This document shows, in pieces, positions 5,693 through 21,449 of a stretch of 32,000 nt of DNA. The position numbers and the translations under genes are program-made. This stretch comes from Microcystis aeruginosa NIES-843. GTDB lineage: Bacteria; Cyanobacteriota; Cyanobacteriia; Cyanobacteriales; Microcystaceae. The stretch spans positions 2,700,001-2,732,000 of the forward strand of contig NC_010296.1 of the NCBI RefSeq assembly GCF_000010625.1. The letters are read 5' to 3'. The notes beneath the pieces are model-generated. The model saw only the letters and a list, made by a program, of their open reading frames with translations. It ran no database searches and was not told the origin of the DNA. Within the stretch, counting starts at the first letter, position 1, and each line of letters opens with the position of its first letter.

Positions 5693-5778
5693 TCACCCCG
5701 TCTGCATAAGTCTGCATAATAAGTGCCGAAGAACCAACCATTATTACTTATTTCACAGATTTAGAACACTAGCGGAAA

Positions 5779-6897
5779 TTAGATATGGGCAACGATCTCG
5801 CCGAAAGGAGCGAGAACCTGAACGGGTTGGGGTCGGATCGGCGCGCTCTCTACTGGTAAACGGGGAAACAACAGTTCGGCAGCCCGGTAGGCTTCCTCTA
5901 GATGGGGATAACCGGAGAGAATAAACGTCTCGATACCGAGATCTCGGTATTCGAGCAGACGGCGCGCTACCGTATCCGCATCCCCCACGAGAGCGGTTCC
6001 CGCTCCCCCGCGTACCAAACCCACCCCAGCCCAGAGATTTGGGCTAATTTCCAAGGCGGCGCGACTGCCGTTGTGCAATTGACTCATCCGCCGTTGCCCT
6101 TCCGAGTCCATGCGCGCGTAGGCGTTTTGGGCGGTGGCGATCGCTTCCTCGTCTACATAGCGGATCAATGTCTCCGCCGTCTCCCACGCTTCGCTGGCCG
6201 TTTCCCTGACGATAACGTGTAAACGAATGCCGAATCGGAGTGTCCGACCGCGGGCCTCGGCTAAACGGCGCACGGTGATGATTTTTTCGGCCACCGCGGA
6301 CGGGGGTTCGCCCCAGGTTAGATAGACATCGACGTGTTTAGCGGCGATCTCGTGGGCGATGGGCGAGGAGCCACCGAACCAAAGGGGTGGGTGGGGCTTC
6401 TGTACGGGGGGAAACAGGACTTTTCCTCCCTCGATCCGCAGGTAATCGCCTTGAAAGTCCGTGTTCGGTTTCGATAATAGTTGTCGCCACACCGTTAGAA
6501 ATTCATCGGTTAGACGGTAGCGATCATCATGGTTTAAATGTACGCCATCTCCCGCCAATTCCACTGGATCGCCTCCCGTGACGACGTTAATTAGTAAGCG
6601 CCCCTCGGAAAGGCGATCAAAAGTGGCCGCCATTCTCGCCGCCACCCCAGGAGAAACTAACCCCGGCCGCACCGCCACGAGAAAGCGCATCTGTCGCGTG
6701 TGCGTGACGAGGGTGGAAGCGACGATCCACGCGTCCTCGCAGGAACGCCCGGTCGGTAAAAGCGCACCCGTGTAGCCTAAATCGTCTACGGCACGCGCAA
6801 TCTGCAACATATATGCGAAAGTAACGCTTCTCCCGCCGATCGCCGTTCCCAGATAACGTCCGTCGCCGTGGGTCGGGATAAACCAGAGTAATTGCAT
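5779..6897 (-). CDS. ssuD: FMNH2-dependent alkanesulfonate monooxygenase
   Basis: It aligns by eye with E. coli SsuD along the N-terminus: [74 protein letters not shown]. An AAGGA Shine-Dalgarno lies ~12 nt upstream. Confidence 0.9.
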
Positions 6898-7042
6898 GGT
6901 CGGTATCCTTCGTGTAGAAATAATAACACATTAATTCTATCAAAATATTGTCTTTAAAAAAGTATCATCTGGAGGAAAATTTTTGTTACCATTTGCTCGG
7001 AATTTGACGGGTATAAATGGGGATAAAGTATATCAAAAACTT

Positions 7043-9061
7043 TTATAAAACTTGAGCGTACCGATTAAATTTTTCCTCTGGAAAATAACCATTAGAGAGT
7101 TGGCTCGAAAAAGAAATCTGATGGAAATGGTAATCTAGTTCGAGTAAATTATAGACTAGCCGTAAAAAATAATCGTCCATCCAAAAATCTACGTCAAATA
7201 ATGAGATACCGTATTGTCCATCTAACCTACGATTGAGGGTTTTTAATAGCCAAGACCATTGGGGTTTTAGGGTGGGATCGGTGTGGTTTCCAGAGGCAGG
7301 AGCGAAGAACTGAAATACCCGATCAGGACAAACCCATGTTACATCGTTTAACAACTTGATCGCTCTTGCGGAATCTGAATGAAACCAATGATTGGCGATT
7401 ACCAAGTCGTGTAGGTAAGCGATAACAAGTTTGGGGTTTTCTTTGAGAAACCGCGATCGACAAACAATGCCTCTAAGGGAAGGAATTCTTAAACCGAAAT
7501 TTTGCTCTAGGGGTAATTTTTTGGCTGAAACGTATTCTTGAAAAATAGAAGTAAAAGTATCACAACATACATAGGCATCTATTTGCTTTTTTCTAAAGCT
7601 CATACTTGCCGTATGTGGATCTTCATTAACCAAGTGACAATCTCGACTAATCTCCAGTCCGTACAGGTTAAAAAGAGTGATAATAAATCGATGCGCGTTG
7701 GAACCAAATAAGGTAGAAATACGCTTGCCTCTTAGTTCTGGGACGGTGGCGATTGGAGAGTCTTTAGGAAGCAGAATCCTCAGATCTTCACCGAAAATAT
7801 TATAAGAGGCAATCCCGATTAGTTTAGAACCGAAACTGAGATTGTTAAAAAACATAGTACCATTGTTTAAAAGAGAAATATCGTCTAAAATACAAATATC
7901 TAAATCTCCTCTTTTCATTTGTTGATTCATTTGTTCACCACAAGCGAATTCAACGATCTGTAAGGTAAAATTTCGATCGATCTCGATATTTTTCTGAAAA
8001 ATTGGTTTTTCGTTGGACTCTCGCTGTAGATCGAAAACATATTTAACTCCATAGCTGGCGATAAACTGTCCGATCGAATCCCGTTGAATTCCAACTCTGA
8101 GTATATTTTCCGTTGGCAAAGTATCGCTGGCAAAAATAAGATTCGGTTGCGGGGAAATGGCTAAATCATCCTGATCGAGGCGAAAACTTCTAACCAAACT
8201 TTCTCCTAATATTAATAGCTCGCTAAAATGAGGGACGTGCAGATAGACTCCATATTCGTTGACATCCTGTATAGGTATTATCGATGCTGGATAATTCAAG
8301 AGGGAATTAAATTGGCAAAAATCAGGCAGGATAGTTGATTTATGGCTTTTTTGCACAGAATCGAGAAGTTCTTGATAACTTTCAATGATTCGTACATCCC
8401 TTAGATAGTTTAATACAACTTGATTTTTACAAAGCTCTTGATAAATTTCATCTAAAAGAACCAAGTCAGTTGGGTTTATATCTGAGATTTTAATCAATTT
8501 TTTGCTAGGAAATAGATCATTCTTACCGAAAGAAATAAGTTGGAAGCGGTGGGTAGTTAGTCTAGTACAATGATGTTTATCTTTATAAGCGGAGAAACTG
8601 TTGAGCAGAATATCAAGGTTTTTGGGCGAGGATTCGGCCAATAAACCTTGAGCGGATAGGGAAATCTCTTGAATATTTCGACTTGGAAAGCAAAGCCGAA
8701 ATCGTCGCCAGTAATGTTTTAACCAGACTTCTAAAATTAAAGGGGTAGCACCGAGAATTAAGTCTTCTCCGTCGGCACTTAAGGTCAGCTGAAACTCTCG
8801 TTGAAGGGTTTCCACGGTTTCTATCACCTGAAAGGTTTCAGAAATTAGCTTTCTACCCTGATTGGTTAGTTTGATCGAGCCAGGGGAGCGATTAACCAGC
8901 AATACTCCAAAATAATCCTCTAATTGCTTGACTTTTTTGCTAATTAATGATTGACTATAGCCCAATTGATAGGCCGCTTTAGAAAAGCTACCAGAATCAT
9001 CGACCGTCTTGAGAATTTTCAGGTGATTTAGGGTAATGTCTTCCGAGGTAATTCGACTCAT
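7043..9061 (-). CDS. Oversized (672 aa) LysR-family regulator: HTH + LysR effector-binding domain + extra C-terminal SsuA/NMT1-like periplasmic-binding-type domain
   Basis: Residues 1-90 are a typical LysR wHTH (LNHLKILKTVDDSGSFSKAAYQLGYSQSLISKKVKQLEDYFGVLLVNR). Residues ~90-300 are LysR-substrate-like. Residues ~320-600 show the SsuA/TauA/NMT1 pattern (LRVGIQ..., MKRGDLDICILD, PELRGKRISTLFGSNAHRFIITLFNLYGLE..DCHLVNEDPHTASMSFRKKQIDAYVC). The start lies 3 nt after the upstream LLM stop. Confidence 0.8.
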   Translation of the reverse strand: MSRITSEDITLNHLKILKTVDDSGSFSKAAYQLGYSQSLISKKVKQLEDYFGVLLVNRSPGSIKLTNQGRKLISETFQVIETVETLQREFQLTLSADGEDLILGATPLILEVWLKHYWRRFRLCFPSRNIQEISLSAQGLLAESSPKNLDILLNSFSAYKDKHHCTRLTTHRFQLISFGKNDLFPSKKLIKISDINPTDLVLLDEIYQELCKNQVVLNYLRDVRIIESYQELLDSVQKSHKSTILPDFCQFNSLLNYPASIIPIQDVNEYGVYLHVPHFSELLILGESLVRSFRLDQDDLAISPQPNLIFASDTLPTENILRVGIQRDSIGQFIASYGVKYVFDLQRESNEKPIFQKNIEIDRNFTLQIVEFACGEQMNQQMKRGDLDICILDDISLLNNGTMFFNNLSFGSKLIGIASYNIFGEDLRILLPKDSPIATVPELRGKRISTLFGSNAHRFIITLFNLYGLEISRDCHLVNEDPHTASMSFRKKQIDAYVCCDTFTSIFQEYVSAKKLPLEQNFGLRIPSLRGIVCRSRFLKENPKLVIAYLHDLVIANHWFHSDSARAIKLLNDVTWVCPDRVFQFFAPASGNHTDPTLKPQWSWLLKTLNRRLDGQYGISLFDVDFWMDDYFLRLVYNLLELDYHFHQISFSSQLSNGYFPEEKFNRYAQVL

Positions 9062-9064
9062 AAT

Positions 9065-10114
9065 TCACCGAGAAATTAAAGGATAGGGGTGTGAGTATCG
9101 ATCGATCACCTGTTGATGAAAATAGAGAGCATCTTCCCGGGTGGATTCAAACTTGAAGATAATCAGGTCAACTCCGATAGATTCGTAGTCTCTCAAGCGA
9201 CGGATCACCGTCTGTGGATCACCGACAAATCGAGCCGAGAGGCCAAGATTTGCCTCGATCGTTTGACCGATATCTAGTTTATTGTGGGCTACTGCATTGG
9301 CATCGATTTGTTGTTGGAAATAACGAATTTTTCGAGTGTCGGCAGAGCGATAAATCTTGTCTAGTCTGGACTCGGCTTCGACCCTGGTAGGGCGGACAAT
9401 GGCGAAAGCGCTCATCGCTACTTGAATCTGCCGTTGATAGCGATCGCTCGCCCATCGTTTTACCTTCTCCACCAGCGCGGCCGTTTTTTCCACATCATCC
9501 GCATTAATAAAAAGATAATCCCCCAAACGAGCCGCTAGATCGATCGCTCGTTCCGATTCCCCCGCAATAAAAACGAGAGGAAGCGGTGTCGGTCGCTCGG
9601 CTAAAATGCCCTGGGTGATCGTGTAATATTTGCCCCGATAATTAAAATCGGCAGTCGTCCATAATCCCCGAATAATCTGAAGATATTCTTCTAATCTAGC
9701 GTAGCGATCGCCGTGGGAGAGCCAAACATCACCGTAGCTTTCCACTTCTAGTTGCCACCACCCCGCGATCCCGCTCAAACCGAACCGGCCTCCACCGGGT
9801 TGATTCTGGAGAGCGGCACTTAGCTTGGCCACCACTGCGGGCAATTTAAACCCCGGTTGTACGGCCGTGACGATTTTAATCTCTTGGGTCGCTAAACTCA
9901 CCGCGCCAGCCGTGAGCCAAGGGTCAGTTACGTCATGATCCGGCCCGTGTACCGCATTGAGATAGTGTTCGGGAATGTAGTAGAAATCATAGCCCACTCG
10001 ATCGGCTTGAACGGCCAACTCGACCAGATCGGAAATCGACCAATTTCTCTCCGGGTTAATCACTCGCAACCATCCACCACAAACGGGTGCCCAAATTCCA
10101 AACTGAAGCGGCAT
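9065..10114 (-). CDS. Luciferase-like (LLM-class) flavin-dependent monooxygenase, substrate unknown
   Basis: LLM hallmarks are present: YIPEHY, TAVQPGF..PAVVAKLSAAL, GRFGLSGIAGWW..E...YG, HGDRYARLEEYLQIIRGLWT. It is the first gene of the minus-strand sulfur operon. Confidence 0.8.
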   Translation of the reverse strand: MPLQFGIWAPVCGGWLRVINPERNWSISDLVELAVQADRVGYDFYYIPEHYLNAVHGPDHDVTDPWLTAGAVSLATQEIKIVTAVQPGFKLPAVVAKLSAALQNQPGGGRFGLSGIAGWWQLEVESYGDVWLSHGDRYARLEEYLQIIRGLWTTADFNYRGKYYTITQGILAERPTPLPLVFIAGESERAIDLAARLGDYLFINADDVEKTAALVEKVKRWASDRYQRQIQVAMSAFAIVRPTRVEAESRLDKIYRSADTRKIRYFQQQIDANAVAHNKLDIGQTIEANLGLSARFVGDPQTVIRRLRDYESIGVDLIIFKFESTREDALYFHQQVIDRYSHPYPLISR

Positions 10115-10628
10115 AGGTGTTTTCCAATACCCACGAGGGAGACGTGTTTTTTAGGAGCCATCACTCTATCATGTTCCTTCCCCAGAAGCGTTATTTTTCC
10201 TTATACCGAAATTCCTCTTGTCTATCACGATTTGGAATATCAGGTATTGAGGTTCGATTGGAGTACCCCTGGAAGACGCACCGTATTCCAAAATGGCATA
10301 GAAAAAGTCAATCGGGGTGTATCAAACTACGACGTCATCCTTGAGTAGTGATTACACTGAAAGGCAATCAACTATATTTCGGTCGAATTACAGTAGTTCT
10401 CGGCTCCAGGCTTGAGAGAGAGCGAGTTTTGACCCCGATATAGGTAACTCGAATCTTGCTAGAAACAGCATTCTAAAGACTTGAGTTAGGGTGCTTGGCG
10501 ATCGCCAAAAACGGGATCGCTCCTCCAGACGAACACGAAAGAGATCGTCCGAAATGACCGTGTACACTGGATTCTTGCGAACGGTGAAGCGGTCGAACCA
10601 ATAGTTTCCATCACGGAGTAACCGAATC
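10115..10628. promoter_or_regulatory. 514-bp divergent control region between the two sulfur operons
   Basis: The position lies between divergent start codons. It contains a 9-bp inverted repeat, tttggaata (10231-10239) and tattccaaa (10284-10292), and a HIP1 site. No promoter elements could be assigned with confidence. Confidence 0.4.
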
Positions 10629-11726
10629 ATGGTAGATATTAAGTTCGCTTACTGGGTTCCCAATGTTAGTGGCGGGTTAGTGGTGAGTAAAATCCCGCAA
10701 AACACCGATTGGACCTACGATTACAACGCTTGGCTGGCACAGACTGCCGAAGAAGTCGGGTTCGAGTACGCGTTAGCCCAAGCCCGATTCATCGCCAGCT
10801 ACGGCGCGGAGTATCAACTAGAGGCCTTTGCCACCGTCGCCGCCCTAGCCCCCGTAACCAAGAAAATCACCCTAATCGCCGCCGTCCATCCCGGTTTATG
10901 GCATCCCGGGGTCGTCGCCAAAATCGGCTCGACGATCGATTTCATTTCCAAAGGTCGTTTCGCCCTCAACATCGTCAGTGGCTGGTTCAAGGGTGAATTC
11001 ACCATCTATGGTGAACCTTGGCTCGATCACGATGAACGCTATCGACGCTCCGAGGAATTCATTCGCATCCTCAAGGGACTGTGGACAGAAGACGAATTCC
11101 ACTTCAAAGGGGATTTTTATCGCATCAACGGCGGTTGGGTCAAACCCCGCCCCGTTAATAATCATCCCCATCCCGAAATCTTTCAGGGGGGTAACTCCAA
11201 AGCCGCCCGACAGATGGCCGGTCGGGTATCGGACTGGTATTTCATGAACGGCAACTCGATCGAGGGAGTCCGCGAACAGATCGAGGAAGTTTCCGCCCTT
11301 GCCCGTCAAGCCAGCCGTAGTATCAAGTTCGGTCTCAACGCCTTTATCCTCGTCCGTGATACCGAAAAAGAAGCCCACGAGTTACTGCGGGAGATTATCG
11401 CCAAAGCCGACAAAGAGGCCGTGGAAGGATTTGGCGAAGCAGTCAAACAAGCGGGTTCCGCCACCAGTGAAAAAGTGGGAATGTGGGCCAACTCGAACTT
11501 TGAAGATCTAGTACAGTACAACGATGGATTCCGTACCGGACTGATCGGCACAAAAGAACAGGTAGCGGAAAAAATCCAGCAGTTTCACGCCGTGGGGGTC
11601 GATTTGATTCTCGGTGGTTTCCTGCACTATACGGACGATTTACCCGCCTTCGGTCGCGAGGTGATTCCGCTCGTGCGGCAACTGGAATCCCGTCGTTCCC
11701 CCAGAGAAGAGTTCGCCCTGGTTTAA
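10629..11726 (+). CDS. sfnG: FMNH2-dependent dimethylsulfone monooxygenase (SfnG-type LLM)
   Basis: There is strong N-terminal resemblance to Pseudomonas SfnG as I recall it: FAYWVPNVSGGLVVSKI, NIVSGWFKGEF...GEPWLDHDERYRRSEEFIR.LKG.W....F.F.GDFYR. Confidence 0.85.
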   Translation: MVDIKFAYWVPNVSGGLVVSKIPQNTDWTYDYNAWLAQTAEEVGFEYALAQARFIASYGAEYQLEAFATVAALAPVTKKITLIAAVHPGLWHPGVVAKIGSTIDFISKGRFALNIVSGWFKGEFTIYGEPWLDHDERYRRSEEFIRILKGLWTEDEFHFKGDFYRINGGWVKPRPVNNHPHPEIFQGGNSKAARQMAGRVSDWYFMNGNSIEGVREQIEEVSALARQASRSIKFGLNAFILVRDTEKEAHELLREIIAKADKEAVEGFGEAVKQAGSATSEKVGMWANSNFEDLVQYNDGFRTGLIGTKEQVAEKIQQFHAVGVDLILGGFLHYTDDLPAFGREVIPLVRQLESRRSPREEFALV

Positions 11727-11760
11727 GCGAAAGAAAGAAATACACAAGGAGAAAATCGTA

Positions 11761-13269
11761 ATGGAAGGGATTAGTCTCGCTCAGGCGGCTCCCCTTGGAC
11801 CGATCGAGGGAATTGTCACCCTGATCGCGTTAGGTCTGGCTATGTTGATTGTTTCCTACTACGCTAAGTGGAAACTGGTAAAAAACACCCACGATTTTGT
11901 GATTGCCGGTCGCAAGCTGGGTTTAGGATTCGGGATTGCCGGCTTGCTTTCCGTCTGGACTTGGGTGATCGGGATTTTACTGCCGATCGGGGTCACCTTT
12001 AAGTACGGATTATCGGGCTTATTTTGGTTTACCGTCCCCAATGGTGCGGCGGTCATTGCCGTGATTCCCTTTGCCAAAAAGTTACGGCGATTGATGCCCC
12101 ACGGTTATACCATCAGCGAGTTTATCTCCGCTCGTTACGCGGGAGCAAAATTGGCTCGCGTGGTCGTAGTCGCTGGTATCCTCTTCGGGGCGATCCAAAT
12201 TGTCACGGTGAATCTCAAGGGAGCATCCCTGATGGTGGCCACGATCTTCGGTCTTCCGGAGGGGGTAGTCGCAACCATCTCCTCGATCGTCATTCTCCTG
12301 TACATCAGTTTAGGGGGACTCTGGGCATCCATGGCTACTTCTACCTTGATGTGTTTGCTGATTATGGTTCCCTCTGTCCTGGTCACCACGGCGGTCTTAG
12401 GCCAGGTGGGAGGGGCGGAAGCCGTGTGGCAGACCGTACAGAGTCAGGGCGGCGAACTTCTTTCGGTGACGCGACCGGATGCCTTCCAGAATTTCGGCTT
12501 AACCTTCGCCCTCGCACTGATTACTGCCACGATCGCCGGACAGGAATTCTGGCAGGTGGCTTGGGGGATCAAAGAACGGGAATTAGGCAAAACCTTTTTC
12601 TGGGGTGGGGGACTCTACTATGTGGTCGCCCTCTGTCTAGGGGTGGTAGGGCTGGTGGGCATCGCGCTCAAGGTGGATCTGGCCCGGGATCTTGGTGGTG
12701 ATCCCGCCGCCTTGGGTCCTTTTTTGGTTTCCCATTTAGGTTTGCCCGATTGGGTGATCTACCTGTTCGTGATCATTGTGCTGTCGGCCTGCTATTCCAC
12801 CTGTGACGGCACATTGGCGGCGGTTAGTTCGGTTTCTGCGGTGGATGTGATCAAGCCCCTGTTCCCCGCTATTTCCGATCGCTCCCTCTTCGCTTGGACG
12901 CGGTTTTCGATGGTCTTAGCGGCGGGAATTTCGGTGGCGGTGGTGCTATCGGGAATCGATCTGGTGACGCTGGTACTGGGGACTTCCATCATCCGCGCCG
13001 CCGTTCTCGTGCCTCTGGTACTGTCGATCGTCTGGTCGCGAATGAATGCCACGGCCTTTACCGCCTGGACGATCATCGGTCTGATTGCCGGGGTTTTCGC
13101 CCTCGCCAAGTTCGGCGAGGAGATCGGTACCTATACGGTAGTCGCAGTCAGCACGATCGTCCCAATTGTGATTGCCTTGACCAATTCCCGACGCTTCGAT
13201 TACACCCAACTACGTCAGGCACAGGATCTATCCGAGATACCGGACACTTCTTCTGTCGCGCTGCGATAA
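11761..13269 (+). CDS. Sodium:solute symporter family (SSF) transporter
   Basis: This is a 502-aa polytopic protein with ~13 hydrophobic segments and the SSF-like N-terminal pattern (DFVIAGRKLGLGFGIAGLLSVWTW). An AAGGAG Shine-Dalgarno lies 8 nt upstream. Confidence 0.8.
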   Translation: MEGISLAQAAPLGPIEGIVTLIALGLAMLIVSYYAKWKLVKNTHDFVIAGRKLGLGFGIAGLLSVWTWVIGILLPIGVTFKYGLSGLFWFTVPNGAAVIAVIPFAKKLRRLMPHGYTISEFISARYAGAKLARVVVVAGILFGAIQIVTVNLKGASLMVATIFGLPEGVVATISSIVILLYISLGGLWASMATSTLMCLLIMVPSVLVTTAVLGQVGGAEAVWQTVQSQGGELLSVTRPDAFQNFGLTFALALITATIAGQEFWQVAWGIKERELGKTFFWGGGLYYVVALCLGVVGLVGIALKVDLARDLGGDPAALGPFLVSHLGLPDWVIYLFVIIVLSACYSTCDGTLAAVSSVSAVDVIKPLFPAISDRSLFAWTRFSMVLAAGISVAVVLSGIDLVTLVLGTSIIRAAVLVPLVLSIVWSRMNATAFTAWTIIGLIAGVFALAKFGEEIGTYTVVAVSTIVPIVIALTNSRRFDYTQLRQAQDLSEIPDTSSVALR

Positions 13270-13289
13270 GTTTTCACAGAATCACGATC

Positions 13290-13805
13290 ATGAATAGTCT
13301 CTTGCAGATGATACCGCCCTCCTTGCGGACTTGGGCGAAGCGGCTCGGCTATTTCCTGGGCGGCACGATGCTCACGGTTTTCTATGCCGGAGCGGTTCCC
13401 GCCCAAAGTCTCCCTAGTCGTCCCCTAACTCAAAATCCCTATTCCCCGACCACCATTATCGCCGGTGTTATTGCCGCTATCATCACGATTTTCTTTCTGC
13501 GGGGAATGTATCTCGTGTTGACCTACGCTTCGGCAACCTATGGACTGGAAGAGGAGGAAGAAGAGGGGAATCTAGAAGGGGGCCAGGAAAACAATGCCTT
13601 ACTCTATGGAGCCTTCGGTTGGATTATCGGTTCGGCTCTGATCATTACTTCCTACGGATTCAGCTGGAGGTTCTTGTATATCGGCCCGATCGTCTGTTTG
13701 CTCGGCCCTCTCGTTCCCATTTTCGCCATGAACCGCGATATCCAGAAATACCGGCAAGTTTTGGCCCGTAGGGCGAGATATCAGTCCTCGCGCTCTCTGT
13801 ATTAA
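13290..13805 (+). CDS. Small (~171 aa) membrane protein of unknown family, possible accessory subunit of the symporter
   Basis: The ATG at 13290 lies 21 nt after the symporter stop. The ORF-track entry 12894-13805 extends upstream only because the frame stays open inside the symporter gene. It has about four hydrophobic segments and an acidic loop (GLEEEEEEGNLEGGQEN). Confidence 0.5.
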   Translation: MNSLLQMIPPSLRTWAKRLGYFLGGTMLTVFYAGAVPAQSLPSRPLTQNPYSPTTIIAGVIAAIITIFFLRGMYLVLTYASATYGLEEEEEEGNLEGGQENNALLYGAFGWIIGSALIITSYGFSWRFLYIGPIVCLLGPLVPIFAMNRDIQKYRQVLARRARYQSSRSLY

Positions 13806-13845
13806 AAGCTAGGCCACTCTATCTCACAGTCTAGGAGTAGTAACC

Positions 13846-15060
13846 ATGACCACGTTAGTAAATGTTGCAACGGAACCGACCGCCCATCTGATTCAAGACG
13901 ATCAAGAAGCGATCGCTGTGGCCAAAGAACTGGCCGCAGAATTTCTCCAAGAGGATTCCCTCCGCGATCGCGAACGCCGTCTACCGGTGGAGGAGGTAAA
14001 AAAATTCTCGCGCAGCGGGCTATGGGGGATCATCGTTCCCAAGGAATACGGGGGTGCGGGCGTATCCTACGCCACCCTAGCGCAAGTGATCGCCATTATT
14101 GCCGAGGCGGATTCTAGTTTGGGACAGATTCCCCAGAATCACCTCTATATGGTGGAAGCGATCCGGCTCGACGGTACGGAGGAACAGAAGCGATTTTTCT
14201 TTGACCTGGTACTGCAAGGCAAACGGTTTGGGAACGCCTTCTCGGAGATCGGCACCAAGTCAGTGACGGACGTGCAAACCAAATTAACTCGATCGGGCGA
14301 TGGCTACGTTCTCAACGGACGCAAGTATTACTCCGCCGGCGCCCTGCTGGCCCATTGGATTCCCACGATCGCCGCCGATGAGAACGGCAATACGATCGTC
14401 GCCTTTGTGGAACGGGACGCGGAAGGCTTGACTCTGCTCGATGATTGGACGAGTTTCGGTCAACGCACCACCGCAAGCGGCACGACGATTCTCGAAAATG
14501 TCCTGGTGAAACCGGAACACGTCATCCCTCACTATCTAGCTTTTGAACGGGCGACCCCGATGGGTGCGGTGGCACAGATTATCCAAGCGGCGGTGGACGT
14601 GGGCATCGCCAAGGCCGCCCTGCGGGATACCCTGTATTTCGTCCGCAACCATACCCGTCCCTGGGTGGATAGTAACCAGGAGAAGGGTTTTGAAGATCCC
14701 CTGACTCTCTACAATCTGGGCAACGTGATCCTACAGATCCACGCCGCGGAAGCCCTACTACGGCGGGCCGGGGAATTTATCGACGCAGCCTATGAATCCG
14801 GGTTAGAGGAGGCGAAAGTAGTGGAATCGTCGATCGCCGTCGCCGAGGCCAAAGCGCTCGCCACGGAAGCCTCCCTACTGGCCACCAATAAACTCTTTGA
14901 ACTGGCCGGCACGAAGTCCACCCTAGAGGAATTTAACTACGATCGCCACTGGCGCAACGCCCGCGCCCACACCCTCCACGATCCGGTGCGCTGGAAATAC
15001 TATGCGATCGGCAATTACTTCCTCAACGGTGCCAACCCGCCCCGCCATCCTTGGCTATAA
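13846..15060 (+). CDS. SfnB/DszC-type acyl-CoA-dehydrogenase-fold flavin monooxygenase (sulfur acquisition oxidoreductase)
   Basis: Acyl-CoA-dehydrogenase-fold motifs are present: GLWGIIVPKEYGGAG, FSEIGT, YYSAGAL. The C-terminal DRHWRNARAHTLHDPVRWKY motif is typical of DszC/SfnB-like proteins. An AGGAG Shine-Dalgarno lies upstream. Confidence 0.8.
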   Translation: MTTLVNVATEPTAHLIQDDQEAIAVAKELAAEFLQEDSLRDRERRLPVEEVKKFSRSGLWGIIVPKEYGGAGVSYATLAQVIAIIAEADSSLGQIPQNHLYMVEAIRLDGTEEQKRFFFDLVLQGKRFGNAFSEIGTKSVTDVQTKLTRSGDGYVLNGRKYYSAGALLAHWIPTIAADENGNTIVAFVERDAEGLTLLDDWTSFGQRTTASGTTILENVLVKPEHVIPHYLAFERATPMGAVAQIIQAAVDVGIAKAALRDTLYFVRNHTRPWVDSNQEKGFEDPLTLYNLGNVILQIHAAEALLRRAGEFIDAAYESGLEEAKVVESSIAVAEAKALATEASLLATNKLFELAGTKSTLEEFNYDRHWRNARAHTLHDPVRWKYYAIGNYFLNGANPPRHPWL

Positions 15061-15138
15061 GTCTGCGGGAGGAAGGGGAGCGCCCTCCCTCTCCTCCTGA
15101 TTTCTACCTTCGATCGGTCACACTACTGTAGAGGAAAT

Positions 15139-16185
15139 ATGAGTGTTGCCCATCCGCTCCAGAAACGGAATATCTGGAAAAATCAACCCTTTAAGGGACT
15201 CTTGTTCATCGGCATTATCGCTGTGGTCAGTCTGGTTTTTGAACTGATCTTCACGGGCCTATTCGCTCTAGATGTAAACGAAAAATTAGTTTATATCACC
15301 CTCTGTTTTGTCTGGTGGTGGCATCTGGGTTTTTCCCTAAATGGCTATCCGGGTTCTCGATTTTTTTCCCATCGCTTCGGACGGGGAACCGTTAATTTAG
15401 CGATCTTGCTGCTGTTGGTCTATCTGACTGGAGAAGCGTGGAAATTTATCTTCACCCCCGCCCGTCTCACCGATACCCCCGTAGGTTTGTGGGGACAAAC
15501 CGCGATTGTTGCCGCCTGTGCCAGTCTGTTCTTTTTCGATAACACGATCGTGGCTTCCGAAGAACTCCAAGACCGACATCCCACCAGTGGATTTCTCAAC
15601 ATCTTTTTTGCCGTTTTTATGGTCGCTCCCGCCCTCACTTTTCTACCGCAGCTCTGGGGATTAAAACCGTTCTATATTCCTTGGTACTGGTATCCCCTCT
15701 CCACGGTATTCGGTAGTTTTTTCGATCGCTGGCCGCTCGCTCAACTGGGCCTAACCATGCCGCGTCTGGGCTTTCGACCTACCGGGGCGGTATTATTTCT
15801 CACCCTCCTGATGGCGTTTTTTCTCCGGCTGGCGGGGATGGATTTATTCACCACGGCGACCGGGCCGACCTTCGCCGCCATCTGGACAACGGTGGGTTTG
15901 GGTTTACTCTGGCAATTCAATCTCTGGCCCTTTCAAGGACTTGCCCAACCGGCCAAGGGAATCATTACATCGGTGATTAGTTTGGTCATCTCGCTGATTC
16001 TTTACGCCGCAACGGAAGTCCTCTTCGGTCCGGCCAATATCCGACCGGGACTGTACTGGTGGTTCGATATTCTCTGGGTGCAGGTGTTTCTCATGGCCCC
16101 GGGATTGTACGACGGGATCGGACTCTGGCAAAGTCGCGCTGAGATAACCGCTGATCGCCCTGCCGAAGCCGTATCTCGTTCCTGA
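15139..16185 (+). CDS. Polytopic (8-9 TM), Trp-rich membrane protein of unknown family
   Basis: This is a 348-aa ORF with a GAGGA Shine-Dalgarno, tightly packed between the sfnB-like gene and ssuE. I recognise no family motif. Confidence 0.65.
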   Translation: MSVAHPLQKRNIWKNQPFKGLLFIGIIAVVSLVFELIFTGLFALDVNEKLVYITLCFVWWWHLGFSLNGYPGSRFFSHRFGRGTVNLAILLLLVYLTGEAWKFIFTPARLTDTPVGLWGQTAIVAACASLFFFDNTIVASEELQDRHPTSGFLNIFFAVFMVAPALTFLPQLWGLKPFYIPWYWYPLSTVFGSFFDRWPLAQLGLTMPRLGFRPTGAVLFLTLLMAFFLRLAGMDLFTTATGPTFAAIWTTVGLGLLWQFNLWPFQGLAQPAKGIITSVISLVISLILYAATEVLFGPANIRPGLYWWFDILWVQVFLMAPGLYDGIGLWQSRAEITADRPAEAVSRS

Positions 16186-16232
16186 TCCGCGAGACCGTTA
16201 TTACCCATTATTACCAATCTAGGAGATTTACG

Positions 16233-16814
16233 ATGGCGAATATTCTCTCGATCGCTGGCAATCCCACCGCTCCTTCTAAAACCTACGGATTCGTTCAATA
16301 CGTCAACGAACTCCTAGAAAAAGAGGGATTTCATACCGATACGATCGCCGTGCGGGACTTCTCGCCGGAAGACCTCATCTACGGACGCTACGATAGTCCG
16401 GCCCTAGAACCGATAAAAGCTCTACTAGGACAGGCCGACGGGATTATCGTGGCCACCCCGATCTACAAGGCCGCCTACACCGGACTGCTGAAAGCTTTCT
16501 TGGATTTACTGCCGCAGGGGGCGTTCGCCAACAAAGTGGTACTGCCGATCGCCACTGGAGGCACGATCGCTCATCTACTGGCGATCGATTATGCCCTCAA
16601 GCCGGTTCTCTCGGAACTGAAGGCGCGTCACATTCTCGGCGGTATTTATGCGATCGATAAACAATTGCAATTCCAGGCCTCTGGCCAACTCCAACCCGAT
16701 GAGGAGATCGGGCAAAGAACCCAAGAGGCGGTACGGGATTTCGTCGTTGCGGTGAACCTACATCGAGCGGCCACGAAGGAAAAAACCCCTACCCCCCTGC
16801 CCGTACATACATAA
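16233..16814 (+). CDS. ssuE: NAD(P)H-dependent FMN reductase
   Basis: It aligns by eye with E. coli SsuE: F.PEDL.Y.R.DSPAL, QADG.IVATP.YKAAY.G.LK..LDLLP......KVVLP.ATGG..AHLLA.DYALKPVL. An AGGAG Shine-Dalgarno lies upstream. Confidence 0.9.
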   Translation: MANILSIAGNPTAPSKTYGFVQYVNELLEKEGFHTDTIAVRDFSPEDLIYGRYDSPALEPIKALLGQADGIIVATPIYKAAYTGLLKAFLDLLPQGAFANKVVLPIATGGTIAHLLAIDYALKPVLSELKARHILGGIYAIDKQLQFQASGQLQPDEEIGQRTQEAVRDFVVAVNLHRAATKEKTPTPLPVHT

Positions 16815-16851
16815 AAGTGTCAGCTTGTCAAGATTCCTTTGAACTATTTTT

Positions 16852-18138
16852 ATGAGCGAGCCTACCCTATCGATTGCCTCTTCCTCTCGAATCATCACCC
16901 TGGCGCGACGGAACCCGGTCGAACCGAGGTTTACCATGGTCGATCGGGCCCTCGATGCCCTACGATCTGGGCAAGCCATCGTCGTCGTGGACGATGAAAA
17001 ACGAGAGAACGAGGGGGATTTAATCTGCGCCGCCGAGTTTGCCACACCGACGATGATTAATTTCATGGCTACCCGGGCCCGGGGGTTGATCTGTCTGGCC
17101 ATGACCGGCGATCGCCTAGACGAATTGCAATTACCGCCGATGGTGGAGAAAAATGGCGATCACCATCAAACCGCTTTCACCGTCAGTATCGATGCGGCGC
17201 CGCACCACGGCGTTACTACGGGGATATCGGCGAGCGATCGCTCCCGCACCATCCAAGTGGCGCTTTCCCCCACCACTACCCCCGATGATCTCAGCCGTCC
17301 GGGGCATATTTTCCCGCTCCGAGCGCGAGCGGGTGGGGTTTTCGAGCGGGCAGGACATACCGAGGCGGCGGTGGATCTGGCTCGTTTAGCTGGACTCTAC
17401 CCCGCCGGAATAATCTGCGAGATCCAGAACCCCAACGGCTCGATGGCGCGTTTACCGGAGTTGATGAGCTACGCGGACGAGTACGGTCTACCGATTATCC
17501 GAATCACCGATCTGATCCGCTATCGCGAAGGGGTAGAATCCTCGGTATCGCGGGAAGCGATCGCCCGTCTGCCTACGGAATTCGGCGAATTTAATATCTA
17601 CGCCTATCGCGACCTCCTCGATGGTTCGGAAGCGACGGCGATCATCAAAGGCGATCCGGACAAATTCGGAGAGCGGACGACTCTGGTCCGAATTCATTCC
17701 CAGTGTTTTACCGGGGATGTTCTCGGTTCCTCCCGTTGTGATTGTCGCCAACAACTGCATATCGCCCTGAAATCGATCGAAACCGCCGGACAAGGGGTTG
17801 TGGTCTATCTTCCACAGGAGGGACGAGGTGTCGGTCTGATCAATAAGCTCAAGGCCTACTCCCTACAGGATCTCGGCCTAGATACGGTAGATGCCAACAG
17901 GAGGCTAGGATTCGAGGCGGACGGGCGTACCTATCGGCTGGGAGCGCATATTCTCAAGGATTTGGGGGTAGCCGATATCCGTTTACTAACTAATAATCCC
18001 CAAAAAGTTCAGGGTCTCCGAGATTGGGGGATCAACATTGTCGAGCGAATCCCTCTCGTCATGCCTCCAAACTACCACAATCAACAGTATTTGCTGACAA
18101 AGCGCGAAAAACTAGGGCATCTGTTGCCGTTTAGCTAG
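16852..18138 (+). CDS. ribBA: Bifunctional 3,4-dihydroxy-2-butanone-4-phosphate synthase / GTP cyclohydrolase II
   Basis: The RibB part has [15 protein letters not shown] and [13 protein letters not shown]. The RibA part has [23 protein letters not shown] (zinc Cys triad), [22 protein letters not shown] and LLTNNPQKV. An alternative start is the ATG at 16936. The TAG stop (18136-18138) overlaps the adjacent MITE terminus. Confidence 0.92.
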
Positions 18139-18351
18139 GGTTGGCTGAATAAATCTAAAAACCTTGTTGGGTAAAACTTTTAGACCTTTTGGCCATCAAA
18201 AAGTAATGGATAGGGGAGTGATCGGGGGAAAAATTCAGGGACTTTTTCCCTGAAAATTAGGTAATTGACCCCCTCAAAATCGGTAAAACCCTACACCCCA
18301 CACCCCACACCCTACACCCTGCCCCCACGAAAAACTTTTTGCCGCAAACCC
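18138..18351 (+). mobile_element. MITE copy A (~214 bp) with TA target-site duplication
   Basis: The terminal inverted repeats are GGGTTGGCTGAATAAA (left) and, on the reverse complement of the right end, GGGTTTGCGGCAAAAAG. TA flanks both ends (18136-18137, 18352-18353). Internally it has a CCCYACA-type C-rich tract. It is ~80% similar by eye to copy B in inverted orientation. Confidence 0.8.
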
Positions 18352-18630
18352 TAGCTAATCACTCCCCTTTTCTAGCGTAGGGGTCGGAAAAAGAGCAATG
18401 CCTGTTGGCAAAGCGGCGGAAGTTCTGCCCGTGTTCTCAAGATAGGACTCCTATTCTCCAGGCCTTAGGATTCTGCGGTTTTACCCTGGAATTCTGCTAC
18501 AGCACCGGCTTGGGATAACGAGACTTTCTCAATTGCTGCCGGAGATATGGGAATCGATCGAGCGCGGTTCCGAGGATTCGTCTGGCCAAAAAACACCGAC
18601 TATCTCTATTTTTTGGATGTGAGGATTTCG

Positions 18631-20196
18631 ATGGTTTCTGTCTCTTGTAATTCGTTATGGCGACCTTCTCTCCTACTGGGAAGCGTTTTCTTTGCCGTAC
18701 CCGCGTTCGCTCAAATCGACCCTTCGGGTTTACCGCTAACCGATATGTCGAAAAACCATCCCGATCCAGCGATGGCGCAACTCACTTCTGTGTCCCAACT
18801 TGCCGATGTTCCGCCGACGGGCTGGGCGTTCGAGGCACTGCGATCGTTAGTGGAACGCTATGGCTGTATTGTCGGCTATCCCGACCGCACCTATCGGGGC
18901 GACCGCGCCTTAACCCGTTGGGAATTTGCCGCCGGTTTGAATGCTTGTTTAAACTCGATCGAGCGATCGCTGCAAGCAGGGGTTTCGATCGCCCAAGGAG
19001 ATCTCGATACACTCAAGCGCCTTGCCCAGGAATTTCAGGCCGAGTTAGGGGCTTTAGGGGCGAGAGTGGATAACCTAGAAAACCAGGCTGCTTTCCTAGA
19101 AGACCATTCCTTTTCGACGACCACGAAACTACTGGGTGAGGCGATTTTCGTGGTCGCCAACGCCTTTCAAGGTGCGAGGGAGGGGAGCAATACCGTGTTT
19201 CAAGATCGCGTGCGTCTTCGGTTCGTCAGCAGTTTTACGGGCAAAGACCAGTTAAACGTAAGGTTAGATGCCGGTAATGCCCGACGATTTAATCTGGGGG
19301 ATGGGACTCCGGAAGCTACTCAATCCTTTAACCTAGTTCCCTCTCTAGACAATAATGTCAATATCGGTTGGCTCGCCTATTATTTTCCCATTGGCGAGCG
19401 CATTTCCGCCTATATTGCAGCGGTCAATGGTGTCACCTACGATTTTATCCCGACGCTGAACCCCTATCTCGATAGCGGTACGGGCGGCGGAAAAGCACTA
19501 ACCGTGTTTGCGTCCGCCAACCCCATTTACCAGATCGGTGGGGGTGCGGGAGGTGGCTTTAACTATCAACTGAGCGATCGCTGGATCGCCAGCTTGGGTT
19601 ATCTGGCCGGGGATCATGCCGCTCCCAATCCGGGTAGTGGTCTTTTTAATGGTCAATACGCTGCGATCGCCCAAATCGCTTGGCTCGATTCTCGATCGGG
19701 TTTCGGGATCACCTACGTCCACGCCTACCAAAATCGGGGAGATTTATTTGACATCGGCAGTAGTTTTGGTATTGTCGGCACTAGGCAGGCTAATAATCCT
19801 TTTGGCACCCCATTGATCAGTGATTCCTTCGGTGCGTCGGGGTTCTTTACCATCACGCCGAACTTGGCGATTAATGGTTTCCTGGGCTATACCAACTCTA
19901 GAAATCTCCAAGGCCACGGAAATGCTGACATTTGGTACTATAGTCTAGGTTTCGCCTTTCCCGATGTGGGCAAAGATGGCAATCTGGGCGGTCTCGTGGT
20001 TGGCGTTCAGCCCTATCAAGCCAATAATCCCACGGATGCCAAGGATTTACCTATCCATGTCGAGGCTTTTTACAAATATCAAATTAATGACAATATCGCC
20101 ATCACTCCTGGCTTATTTTGGCTGATCAACCCCGGTCAAAATAGTAATAATACCAGTGTTATTATCGGTACACTGAGAACCACATTTACCTTCTAG
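18631..20196 (+). CDS. Outer-membrane porin, SLH domain + OprB-like beta-barrel (cyanobacterial porin type)
   Basis: It has a signal peptide (MVSVSCNSLWRPSLLLGSVFFAVPAFAQ), an SLH motif (DVPPTGWAFEALRSLVERYGCIVGYPDRTYRGDRALTRWEFA), a coiled-coil linker, a Gly/aromatic-rich barrel and a terminal TFTF. I prefer the ATG at 18631 (GAGGA Shine-Dalgarno) to the 18547 start. Confidence 0.85.
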   Translation: MVSVSCNSLWRPSLLLGSVFFAVPAFAQIDPSGLPLTDMSKNHPDPAMAQLTSVSQLADVPPTGWAFEALRSLVERYGCIVGYPDRTYRGDRALTRWEFAAGLNACLNSIERSLQAGVSIAQGDLDTLKRLAQEFQAELGALGARVDNLENQAAFLEDHSFSTTTKLLGEAIFVVANAFQGAREGSNTVFQDRVRLRFVSSFTGKDQLNVRLDAGNARRFNLGDGTPEATQSFNLVPSLDNNVNIGWLAYYFPIGERISAYIAAVNGVTYDFIPTLNPYLDSGTGGGKALTVFASANPIYQIGGGAGGGFNYQLSDRWIASLGYLAGDHAAPNPGSGLFNGQYAAIAQIAWLDSRSGFGITYVHAYQNRGDLFDIGSSFGIVGTRQANNPFGTPLISDSFGASGFFTITPNLAINGFLGYTNSRNLQGHGNADIWYYSLGFAFPDVGKDGNLGGLVVGVQPYQANNPTDAKDLPIHVEAFYKYQINDNIAITPGLFWLINPGQNSNNTSVIIGTLRTTFTF

Positions 20197-20264
20197 CAAT
20201 CAACAAAATTTACCCCTATACCTTCCTGTTTAGGGGGATTCGATATATCTAAGGAATCTCGATC

Positions 20265-21449
20265 ATGTCAGTATCCCCTAGTCAGTCTGCCGATTATTAT
20301 CTATCTCTCGCGGTTTCTCTGGCATCGGAATTCGCCATCGATGCAGTGGAGCGAGACCATCAGGGTGGAACCCCGAAACTGGCGCGCGATCGCCTCCGCC
20401 AAAGTGGTCTTTTGACCTTATTGATTCCCCGAGAATACGGTGGTTCTGGCGAGAGTTGGATTACCTTATTTCGCATCGTTCGAGAGTTCGCCCAAGTCGA
20501 TAGCTCGATCGCTCATATTTTTTCCTACCATCATCTTGGGGTGATCGTTCCCCATCTTTTCGGGACGATCGAACAGAAGGAATACTACTACAAGGAAACC
20601 ATCCGACAGAATTGGTTTTGGGCGAATGCGTTAAATCCCTTGGATCGTCGGACAGCGATCGCTTCCGAGGGCGATATTTTCCGACTAGAAGGCAAGAAAA
20701 GCTTCTGTTCCGGTTCGTGGGATTCTGACATTTTACCCGTTACGGCGATCGATCAGGAGACGGGGAAAATATCGGTTCTTGTGGTTCCCACCCAGCGTGA
20801 GGGAGTAGAACTGCACGCCGATTGGGATAATATGGGTCAACGGCAAACCGATAGTGGTAGTGTTTCGTTTCATAATGTGGCGATTTACCCCCGCGAGTTT
20901 TTCGGTTCGCAAGCCTTTCCTGCGCCACCTTTCGCCACTTTCCGCGCCTGTTTAACCCAGTTGAATCTAGCCAATATCTACCTGGGGATTGCCCTGGGGG
21001 CTTTTGAGGCCGCACGACGGTACACGAGAGAGCAAACCCGTCCTTGGCTAACTGCCGGGGTCGAGCGAGCGACGGAAGCTCCCTATCTCCTCCATCGTTA
21101 CGGCAGTCTGTGGGTCGATTTAGAGGCGGCCAGGGGTTTGGTTGATCGAGCAACGGAAATTCTACAGGACGCGTGGGAGGAACAATGGGAGCTCACCGCA
21201 GAAAAGCGCGGTCGCTGTGCCGTGGCGATCGCAGTGGCCAAGGTGGCGGCGACACGGGTGGGATTAGAGGTGGTGAATCAAATGTTCGAGGTCATGGGGG
21301 CGAGGGCGACATCGAGTTCCTACGGGTTTGATCGCTACTGGCGGAATCTACGAACTTTTACCCTTCATGATCCTGTGGATTACAAAATTCGCGATCTGGG
21401 CAATTGGATTGTCAATGAAAAATTCCCGGAACCGAATTTTTATTCTTAA
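20265..21449 (+). CDS. Second DszC/SfnB-type acyl-CoA-dehydrogenase-fold flavin monooxygenase
   Basis: Motifs are LLTLLIPREYGGSG, DWDNMGQRQTDSGSVSF and the C-terminal DRYWRNLRTFTLHDPVDYK. It is a paralog of 13846-15060. An AAGGA Shine-Dalgarno lies upstream, 68 nt after the porin stop. Confidence 0.8.
   Translation: MSVSPSQSADYYLSLAVSLASEFAIDAVERDHQGGTPKLARDRLRQSGLLTLLIPREYGGSGESWITLFRIVREFAQVDSSIAHIFSYHHLGVIVPHLFGTIEQKEYYYKETIRQNWFWANALNPLDRRTAIASEGDIFRLEGKKSFCSGSWDSDILPVTAIDQETGKISVLVVPTQREGVELHADWDNMGQRQTDSGSVSFHNVAIYPREFFGSQAFPAPPFATFRACLTQLNLANIYLGIALGAFEAARRYTREQTRPWLTAGVERATEAPYLLHRYGSLWVDLEAARGLVDRATEILQDAWEEQWELTAEKRGRCAVAIAVAKVAATRVGLEVVNQMFEVMGARATSSSYGFDRYWRNLRTFTLHDPVDYKIRDLGNWIVNEKFPEPNFYS

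Follow-up and report, generated by a model that had tools for sequence, protein, structure and literature searches.

A LysR-type regulator with an SsuA-like binding-protein module as its predicted sensor in an organosulfur gene island of Microcystis aeruginosa NIES-843

The 32,000-nucleotide stretch of Microcystis aeruginosa NIES-843 considered here (contig NC_010296.1, positions 2,700,001–2,732,000; hereafter the window, with coordinates counted from its first letter) carries organosulfur-related genes around a gene, of about twice the normal length, for a LysR-type transcriptional regulator (LTTR). This gene (7043..9061, minus strand, stop codon included) starts with ATG at 9061, ends at 7043 and encodes 672 aa, as established from the open reading frame (ORF), its translation and full-length homologues at 47–99% identity. 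LTTRs typically have about 300–330 aa in two modules, a size that this protein does not share, its third module covering aa 319–647. We consider it moderately probable that the product is a cytoplasmic LysR-type one-component regulator in which an anciently fused NitT/TauT (SsuA-like) module is the predicted sensor.

A preliminary description, made from the sequence alone, had placed the regulator ATG 3 nt behind the upstream gene, and the sequence bears this out. On the minus strand, the TGA (9067–9065) of a luciferase-like monooxygenase (LLM) ORF (9065..10114) is followed by att and the regulator ATG (9061–9059), so the tight linkage of the two genes stands. The motifs quoted there (ILRVGIQ, RGDLDICI, PELRGKRISTLFGSNAH and QIDAYVCC) are all present in the translation. 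Neither a signal peptide nor a transmembrane helix was found in the regulator, the highest 19-residue Kyte–Doolittle mean being 1.08.

A homologue search among 5.8 billion proteins returned 114 clusters, nearly all of full length (660–710 aa) and reaching down to 47% identity. The hosts are Nostoc, Aulosira, Aliinostoc, Egbenema, Elainella, and Leptolyngbya-like and Phormidesmis-like cyanobacteria, including closed chromosomes; N. punctiforme NIES-2108 (locus L009) is among the Nostoc strains that have the family. Two independent Microcystis metagenome-assembled genomes have the same locus, with protein identities of 99% (M. aeruginosa) and 97% (M. novacekii). These data bear on the possibility, raised in the preliminary description, that a separate LysR gene and an ssuA-like gene were joined erroneously during sequencing or assembly. 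Split or truncated entries do occur in the databases, though they are few (proteins P0079, P0110 and P0113; loci L054, L058 and L062). However, the frame of 660–710 aa is uninterrupted in more than 100 clusters from independent assemblies, among them complete Nostoc, Aliinostoc and Egbenema chromosomes; at least 365 clusters of a sister family, described below, are collinear with the regulator; the linker before the third module lacks a signal peptide, and the ORF has no internal stop. The chance of such an artefact is therefore practically negligible, and we regard it as ruled out by the comparative data.

The G+C content of the regulator gene is 38%, and that of its neighbours in the window is 51–59%. 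A chimera, which so low a value could suggest, was rejected because the same AT-rich offset (2–15 points) recurs in every lineage examined (L002, L026, L039, L041, L044, L052 and L057). The low G+C content is a family trait, perhaps caused by low expression.

The N-terminal module (aa 11–70; 8852..9031, minus strand) is a winged helix-turn-helix (wHTH) DNA-binding domain matching Pfam HTH_1 (PF00126) with an E-value of 1.5e-16 and 60.5 bits against a cutoff of 26.6. It is followed by a linker helix and a LysR effector domain (RD-I/RD-II) at aa 71–295 (8177..8851, minus strand). Pfam LysR_substrate (PF03466) did not match the regulator even at E ≤ 10; with Pfam alone only HTH_1 was significant, and NMT1 families appeared at E of about 0.01. 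Nevertheless, four other comparisons all align here. NCBIfam LTTR models (equivalog) cover aa ~10–250, and a family-profile search of the PDB aligned CcpC (5z7h) over aa 8–254 (and, in the third module, SsuA structures over aa 426–565). Foldseek with the full-length model matched full-length BenM, CbnR, CcmR and OxyR over about 300 columns at E of about 1e-17 and, apart from these, SsuA and TauA over a similar number of columns, and hhalign against the PF03466-positive sister family gave a probability of 100% and an E-value of 9e-46 over 614 columns. The effector domain is therefore real but divergent. What the preliminary description called a regular LysR effector domain is present, but it is not regular, having no PF03466 match and being the least conserved module.

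The degree of conservation was expressed as majority-residue conservation in a 27-sequence alignment. It is 0.78 in the wHTH, 0.50–0.57 in the effector domain, 0.38 in the inter-module linker, 0.66–0.72 in the third module and 0.90 in the segment aa 596–650. In the full-length AlphaFold2 (AF2) model, a monomer like the domain-only model described below, the wHTH and linker helix (11–93) precede an alpha/beta effector domain (101–295), a disordered linker (295–317) and a second alpha/beta module. The linker (aa 296–318; 8108..8176, minus strand) has a predicted local distance difference test score (pLDDT) below 50 and a variable length in the family alignment, and it stands where free substrate-binding proteins (SBPs) carry their signal peptide. 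Whole-length Foldseek matches of the regulator also include BvgS and GlnPQ, which are tandem periplasmic-binding-protein (PBP) sensors.

The third module (aa 319–647; 7121..8107, minus strand) is a class II binding-protein module of the NitT/TauT (SsuA-like) kind, based on TIGR01728, AF2, Foldseek and similarity to SBPs. The SsuA family model TIGR01728 aligns to aa 352–599 with an E-value of 7e-21 and 74.7 bits, below the family cutoff of 163.5, and the sequence matches in the PDB are SsuA of X. citri (3e4r, E 4.5e-7) and of E. coli (2x26). A domain-only AF2 model built on a deeper alignment reached a pLDDT of 80.4 and a predicted template modelling score (pTM) of 0.84. Its Foldseek matches with SsuA and TauA lie overall at E 1e-16 to 1e-18 (E. 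coli SsuA 2x26, E 5.6e-18; X. citri SsuA 3ksx, TM 0.73 and 22% identity; TauA, TM 0.77), and these two, not NrtA or CmpA, are the best fold matches. As the predicted structure shows, the C-terminal module keeps a complete two-lobe binding-protein fold. The PBP-type fold proposed in the preliminary description is thus borne out by the NCBIfam profile and by the AF2 model with Foldseek against SsuA/TauA; the whole 672-aa three-module architecture with its SsuA-like third module likewise agrees with the profile, fold and hhalign comparisons. Part of the module is the extremely conserved segment aa 596–650 (DPTLKPQWSWLLKTLNRRL...DFW.DDYFLRLVY). The C-terminal ~25 aa (7046..7120, minus strand) have a pLDDT below 50, and the bin aa 651–672, which makes up most of them, has a conservation of 0.70.

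Foldseek also matched the module, more weakly, with Thi5 and the desulfinase DszB (E ~1e-12 to 1e-13), PqqT and the CmpC C-terminal domain (CmpC-CRD, 9uak, E 9.5e-12). The DszB and Thi5 matches favour another explanation, namely that the module has no small-molecule ligand and is a structural, oligomerisation, auto-inhibitory or docking part, or the remnant of an SBP-fold enzyme (DszB- or Thi5-like). It would fit with this that the most conserved part of the protein, aa 596–650, consists of C-terminal helices and not of the pocket and could be an interface, and that CmpC-CRD acts partly by locking partner domains (PMC13287603). Against it stand the invariant positions predicted to line the pocket (Q326, S329, G331, Q332, D393, N400, G401, S419, Y420, N421, G453, H457, R458 and D495), and it is with true binding proteins that the module matches best in sequence and structure. 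In the published DszB structure, the catalytic Cys is said to lie near the first strand, where the regulator family has no Cys. We rank a DszB-like enzymatic role low and consider a module without a ligand quite unlikely.

The LLM gene (9065..10114, minus strand), which is the first gene of the regulator operon, encodes an SfnG-like paralogue (Bac_luciferase, E 2e-55; TIGR04021, 206 bits against a cutoff of 383). On the other side, 146 nt downstream of the regulator, ssuD (5779..6897, minus strand) encodes an alkanesulfonate monooxygenase (NF001939, 631 bits; TIGR03565, 612 bits). The operon made up of the LLM gene, the regulator and, after the 146-nt spacer, ssuD is divergent from the sfnG operon, which opens the organosulfur island at 10629..21449 (plus strand). 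Based on Pfam, NCBIfam, translations and synteny across cyanobacteria, the island contains, in order, genes for SfnG, an SSF symporter, a small membrane protein, SfnB, a polytopic membrane protein, SsuE, RibBA, an OprB porin and a DszC/SfnB-like oxidoreductase. The absence of the classic divergent LysR layout, stressed in the preliminary description, therefore holds for the gene, which lies inside a structural operon, but not for the operon, which is divergent from that of sfnG with LTTR-type boxes in between. No ABC (ATP-binding cassette) ATPase, permease or free SBP was found among the window ORFs scanned with Pfam and NCBIfam, and the uptake-type genes of the window are those for the SSF symporter, the membrane proteins and the porin.

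Synteny was compared over 60-odd loci, which fall into two layouts. The Nostocales-type layout (Nostocales, Microcystis, Elainella and Egbenema) has sfnG-(SSF)-sfnB divergent from the LLM gene and then the regulator, and in most of these loci the LLM gene is syntenic with the regulator. The Leptolyngbya-type layout consists of genes for the SSF symporter, a small membrane protein, the regulator, an SsuE-like reductase and an LLM of the DmoA/NtaA type, with short spacers. In most loci the regulator lies directly 3′ of a structural gene (LLM or the pair of SSF and small membrane protein), while in L028, L042 and L056 no LLM gene was detected and the candidate box described below stands directly upstream of the regulator. 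Wherever neighbours were detected, they always include two-component flavin monooxygenases and, for the flavin supply, an FMN reductase. The SSF symporter gene is near the regulator in the Leptolyngbya-type loci and in some Nostocales-type loci. The position of ssuD after the regulator was seen only in Microcystis loci.

Some further genes of the window deserve mention. The RibBA gene (16852–18138, plus strand) recurs near the regulator in other lineages, and the bifunctional enzyme presumably boosts the FMN supply for flavin-dependent monooxygenases. A Trp-rich polytopic membrane protein of 348 aa (15139–16185, plus strand) belongs to no Pfam or NCBIfam family and recurs in many Nostoc loci. 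The same absence of Pfam and NCBIfam families applies to a membrane protein of ~171 aa (13290–13805, plus strand), which was detected after the SSF gene in Microcystis loci and in two Nostoc loci (~41% identity); in L044 and L057, unmatched small ORFs occupy its place, a likeness by position only. Both membrane proteins are possibly transport components. A DDE transposase gene (3327–4754, minus strand) borders the island, taken here as 5779–21449, and the identities across it are mosaic: SfnB is 93% identical to that of Egbenema and the SSF symporter 90% to that of Elainella, but the regulator only 57–59% to those of these genera. Together with the occurrence of ssuD after the regulator only in Microcystis, this suggests, from sequence comparison, that the island was acquired horizontally and reshuffled. 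At the edge of the window, a 1019-aa protein (14–3073, plus strand; G+C 59%) has both RTX calcium-binding repeats and a haem peroxidase domain of the animal type.

Footprinting by k-mers brought out two conserved boxes in the intergenic regions between the LLM gene and sfnG. Box 1, TATTCCAAAATGGCATA (10284..10300, no strand assigned), is a T-N11-A palindrome one mismatch away from TATTCC-N5-GGAATA and is the candidate operator on the sfnG side; the phylogenetic footprint in Nostoc is a perfect palindrome, TATTCCA-N3-TGGAATA (TAT-N11-ATA). A -10-like hexamer, TGTATC (TATATC in Nostoc; 10318..10323, plus strand), 17 nt downstream of Box 1, marks the putative promoter of the sfnG operon. Box 2, TATCACGATTTGGAATA (reverse complement TATTCCAAATCGTGATA; 10223..10239, no strand assigned), is an imperfect copy conserved in Microcystis, Nostoc and Egbenema and the candidate operator of the LLM-regulator operon. 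Here too a -10-like hexamer, TATAAG (TGTCAT or TATCAT in Nostoc; 10200..10205, minus strand), lies 17 nt downstream and belongs to the putative LLM-regulator(-ssuD) promoter. The distance of 17 nt between box and hexamer (16 nt in two lineages) holds for both promoters and in distant lineages; the sequence of the spacer differs between genera, while the hexamer and the spacing are kept. A perfect or near-perfect palindrome is also found upstream of the SSF-regulator operon in distant lineages with 47–53% protein identity. Altogether, 1.1 Mb of loci contained 50 perfect copies, each locus having a single one, without exception upstream of the cluster; shuffles gave none. The box is absent from the sister-family loci, two distant members of which (L072 and L074) have TTTTAT-N6-ATAAAA in common in their divergent region. 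From these patterns, TATTCC-N5-GGAATA is likely the operator of the regulator. Each box spans roughly -46 to -30, and its right arm GGAATA makes a poor -35 match, which makes the role of an activator the most likely one; we infer that both divergent promoters are activator-dependent.

A promoter of another form, in which Box 1 would be a recognition site at -65 and the -10 element would lie further downstream, was set aside as less likely since only the box-N17-hexamer arrangement is common to both promoters and the distant lineages. In the regulator–ssuD spacer (6898–7042), no box resembling TATTCC-N5-GGAATA with up to two mismatches was found. The sfnG leader (10324–10628, plus strand) measures ~300 nt, much as it does in Nostoc, and has conserved inverted repeats. 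Those of Nostoc are TCACGAC-N12-GTCGTGA, directly after the -10-like hexamer, and a TACGGTA...TACCGTA-like pair 70–110 nt further on. Such repeats may act as a second operator or fold into a structure in the leader RNA; Rfam gave no match in the window, the long sfnG leader included.

The origin of the third module was approached with a search by this module only among 1.84 billion representatives. The regulator family forms one 50% cluster there, and the next matches, at 29% identity, are proteobacterial periplasmic binding proteins of 450–490 aa. One of these, a long SBP of Bradyrhizobium, carries a signal peptide, and the genes behind it are those for an ABC permease and ATPase; it has the highly conserved "DPTLKPQW...W.DD.F" tail in common with the module. 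The same search found proteins of 610–715 aa with HTH_1, LysR_substrate and NMT1-like domains, which match in their C-terminal half; those with organism names are cyanobacterial. A profile of this sister family collected at least 365 further clusters, named members of which include Synechococcus PCC 7335, Leptolyngbya, Coleofasciculus, Trichocoleus and Gloeocapsa. Because the two families are collinear over the 614 hhalign columns, the fusion of an LTTR with an SBP is, on sequence grounds, older than their split, ancient and cyanobacteria-wide.

The sister family (for example, P0327 of Synechococcus sp. PCC 7335, and proteins of Leptolyngbya, Coleofasciculus, Trichocoleus and Cyanobium) resembles the window regulator in its three collinear modules, its cyanobacterial hosts and its sulfur-related neighbourhood. 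It differs in an identity of only ~20–26% to the regulator family, a clear PF03466 domain, canonical Gly-Asp and G-S-S/A-A-H pocket motifs, another recognition helix and, with TTTTAT-N6-ATAAAA, another palindrome. Its gene is solitary, in the classic divergent layout opposite a cluster for an AprA-like flavoprotein, ferredoxin, HEAT and Mrp proteins, with an ABC importer adjoining. In detail, loci L072 (3490–14815) and L074 (3329–13543) have, opposite the regulator gene, an AprA-like flavoprotein (PRK08275), a 75-aa 2×[4Fe-4S] ferredoxin, a HEAT-repeat protein and an Mrp/ApbC Fe-S carrier; the ABC importer, with an SsuA-family SBP of 510–544 aa, adjoins in both, whereas a YeiH-type exporter turned up only in L072. 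This cluster may represent an undescribed organosulfur pathway. A 779-aa protein (P0123) fuses HEAT repeats with an NMT1/SsuA-like domain, which connects the HEAT protein encoded in the sister cluster to this binding-protein fold.

The fused module of the sister family is 33% identical (E 6e-56) to the 510–544-aa SBP of the adjacent ABC importer, and the module of the window regulator is 27% identical (E 5e-31) to the 544-aa periplasmic SBP of a sister-family locus, the tail included. The nearest free-standing relatives of the module are thus the 450–545-aa "long" NitT/TauT SBPs. In line with these similarities, the module is, as far as its relatives tell, derived from the long-SBP subfamily and not from a lost SsuA of the cluster itself. 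The proposal of the preliminary description that the missing SsuA had been recruited is accordingly not borne out: the module scores below the SsuA cutoff, its nearest kin are long SBPs, and the fusion is ancient and shared with the sister family.

As the SBP-derived module is far better conserved than the LysR effector domain, in which distant members are only 23–34% identical, it is probably the main signal input, the effector domain serving mainly as a scaffold. We suggest the following scheme for the regulator. The wHTH, linker helix and effector domain would supply DNA binding and an oligomer scaffold. The candidate boxes point strongly to control of both the regulator's own LLM-regulator(-ssuD) operon and the sfnG-SSF-sfnB-ssuE-ribBA operon, at both of which the protein would most likely act as an activator. 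In the cytoplasm, a small organosulfur molecule would make the SBP-derived module close; this ligand would be either what the co-conserved SSF symporter brings in or a metabolite close to it, such as a sulfone, sulfinate or sulfonate, and the closure would be relayed to the LTTR core. A parallel may be seen in the SBP-like C-terminal domains of NrtC and CmpC, which sense cytoplasmic nitrate. With CmpA/NrtA, their periplasmic counterparts, these domains share ~30% identity; they bind nitrate in the cytoplasm, with a Kd of 0.38 mM in the case of CmpC, and thereby control the transporter (PMC13287603). The 33% identity between the sister module and the SBP of the adjacent importer fits this idea of sensing inside what enters from outside.

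Several points weigh against the scheme. SsuA of X. citri contacts the sulfonate through Gln36, Gly68, Gly86 and Ser141, and TauA its ligand through Gln30, Gly61, Gly79 and Thr132 (PMC3839906, PMC6906117). In the HMMER alignment, Gly68 is kept as G375 of the regulator, but Gly86 is replaced by Asp393, invariant in the family, and Ser141 by the nearly invariant Asn455, with S/T454 adjacent. Q326 in the GIQRDS strand is invariant, its equivalence to Gln36 resting on motif position only. Two of the four sulfonate-contact positions are thus replaced family-wide, so that a classic alkanesulfonate ligand is not assured; at the replaced sites, Gly-Asp and G-S-S/A-A-H persist in the sister family and in free SBPs. 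Arg458, Cys499 and Cys500 are further family-specific residues of the predicted pocket. The full-length AF2 model has a pLDDT of 66.6 and a pTM of 0.39, and the packing of the modules is not confidently predicted. As for the DNA side, many palindrome-bearing loci come from closely related Nostoc and cannot be counted as independent; repression would be just as compatible with a box centred near -38; the promoter assignment rests on consensus-like hexamers; and a generic sigma70 and terminator scan of 5600–10700 gave nothing above shuffle expectation.

Judged by its residues, the predicted pocket looks functional but retuned, given the replaced contact positions and the family-specific Arg458 and Cys499/500. 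Its ligand may be what the SSF symporter transports or an intermediate of the pathway (sulfone, sulfinate, sulfonate); sulfite, the end product, is an alternative candidate. The sulfonate or sulfone sensor of the preliminary description therefore survives in part: since the regulator sits in an organosulfur cluster without an SsuABC transporter, a cytoplasmic one-component sensor is the most economical reading, whereas sulfonate specificity is unproven with two of four contacts changed. Seven cysteines of the regulator are invariant or nearly so (aa 124, 165, 249, 475, 499, 500 and 534), including the CC pair in a strand lining the predicted pocket, and they do not occur in the sister family or the free SBPs; the histidines H163, H275 and H457 are invariant. 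These residues may have a redox, metal or covalent-adduct role.

The end product leads to a different assignment, in which the SBP module binds sulfite, sulfate or thiosulfate as a signal of sufficiency and, as a co-repressor or anti-inducer, switches the island off. SsuA-type pockets grip the -SO3 group through helix dipoles (PMC3839906), and the predicted pocket is invariant across sub-lineages with different enzymes (SfnG/SfnB/LLM versus an LLM of the DmoA/NtaA type), whose common chemistry is the release of sulfite; the overlap of the box with the -35 region is compatible with repression. On the other hand, the SSF symporter and the small membrane protein occur in both sub-lineages as well, and a common imported substrate explains the invariance equally. 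In addition, with the invariant Asp393/Asp394 at its anion-binding dipole the pocket would be unfavourable for a small dianion, and the putative promoters lack a -35-like element, which suggests activation dependence. We consider an end-product sensor rather unlikely.

A second input through the LysR effector domain should also be discussed. CysB and Cbl have N-acetylserine, sulfide/thiosulfate or APS (adenosine 5′-phosphosulfate) as effector ligands, and the effector domain of the regulator could likewise read the sulfur status while the SBP module reads the organosulfur substrate, so that the island is on only with scarce sulfur and a usable compound. Both modules have been kept in both families over a long evolutionary span, and invariant effector residues occupy positions of the hinge or pocket-strand type (C124, Y159, H163, C165, R167, T170, P246, C249 and H275). 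The fused protein could do the jobs of two proteobacterial regulators: according to Kertesz and van der Ploeg and to Endoh et al., ssu/sfn genes of proteobacteria reportedly need CysB plus Cbl, or CysB plus SfnR. However, the effector domain is the least conserved module (RD-II, 0.50, with 23–33% identity between distant members) and too diverged for PF03466, and the residues conserved in it cluster on strands of the core and hinge, where their role may be a structural or interface one. Such an integrator is possible but clearly less probable than the SBP module as the main input. No less tentative is a cyanobacteria-wide class of tandem-PBP LTTRs acting as logic gates, in which the LysR pocket would read the sulfur status and the remodelled SBP pocket (Asp393, Asn455, Arg458, Cys499/500) an uncharged or sulfinate-type organosulfur compound, e.g., dimethylsulfone or methanesulfinate.

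No family of bacterial transcription factors is larger than the LTTRs, which normally receive their signal through one effector domain; a branch with a second, transporter-derived module would be a different way to wire specificity. It would also extend the cyanobacterial reuse of NitT/TauT SBPs as cytoplasmic sensors, known from NrtC and CmpC, from transport to transcription. Should the logic-gate idea be true, the regulator would be the first known transcription factor with a transporter-type binding protein as a second effector domain and a first handle on the control of organosulfur scavenging in bloom-forming cyanobacteria. No papers were found on how cyanobacteria, among them Microcystis as a bloom former and Nostoc as a symbiont, regulate their use of organosulfur compounds such as sulfones or sulfonates. 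Literature searches for a LysR protein with an SsuA/NMT1 domain, cyanobacterial sulfonate use, sfnG and Microcystis alkanesulfonate monooxygenase found no description of the regulator or its architecture, as the preliminary description had supposed; the architecture is, however, common in databases, and some automatic JGI and NCBI names already list both the LysR and the SBP part. The regulator is real and uncharacterised, and it combines known kinds, an LTTR and a cytoplasmic SBP sensor like that of NrtC/CmpC. The candidate operator, the two putative promoters and the short list of pocket residues are targets for direct tests, and the module could seed biosensors for small organosulfur compounds.

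Compared with canonical LTTRs (CysB/Cbl, CbnR, BenM, CcmR/NdhR and OxyR), the regulator has the same wHTH, linker helix and two-subdomain effector, a T-N11-A palindromic candidate operator, an operon divergent from its target operon and probable autoregulation. It is twice as long, carries a complete PBP-type third module and has an effector domain too diverged for PF03466; moreover, it is the second or third gene of a structural operon, whereas a canonical LTTR is a solitary divergent gene. The proteobacterial sfn/ssu/msu genes are regulated by CysB, Cbl and the sigma54-dependent SfnR, which act on the same kinds of target genes (SfnG, SfnB, SsuD and SsuE) but are separate proteins of other architectures; CysB, Cbl and SfnR are not known to have an SBP-derived sensor domain.

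With SsuA/TauA (2x26, 3e4r/3ksx and 6ssy), the third module shares the class II two-lobe fold, these proteins being its best sequence and fold matches, as well as the Gly that opens helix 2, the helix-dipole motif G-S/T-x-x-H and, judged by motif position only, the conserved strand-1 Gln. It differs from them in lacking a signal peptide, in its cytoplasmic location, in having no linked SsuBC, in the 74.7 versus 163.5 bits, in the changes Gly86 to Asp393 and Ser141 to Asn455, in the extra invariant Arg458 and Cys499/500, and in being closer to the long (450–545 aa) SBPs. A parallel in design is the C-terminal domain of NrtC/CmpC (9uak, a Foldseek match), likewise a NitT/TauT SBP paralogue placed in the cytoplasm within a larger protein and provided with an extra C-terminal helical subdomain (PMC13287603). 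That domain, however, is fused to a nucleotide-binding domain and exerts allosteric control of transport with nitrate as the ligand, while in the regulator the fusion partner is an LTTR, the control is presumably transcriptional and the context is that of sulfur.

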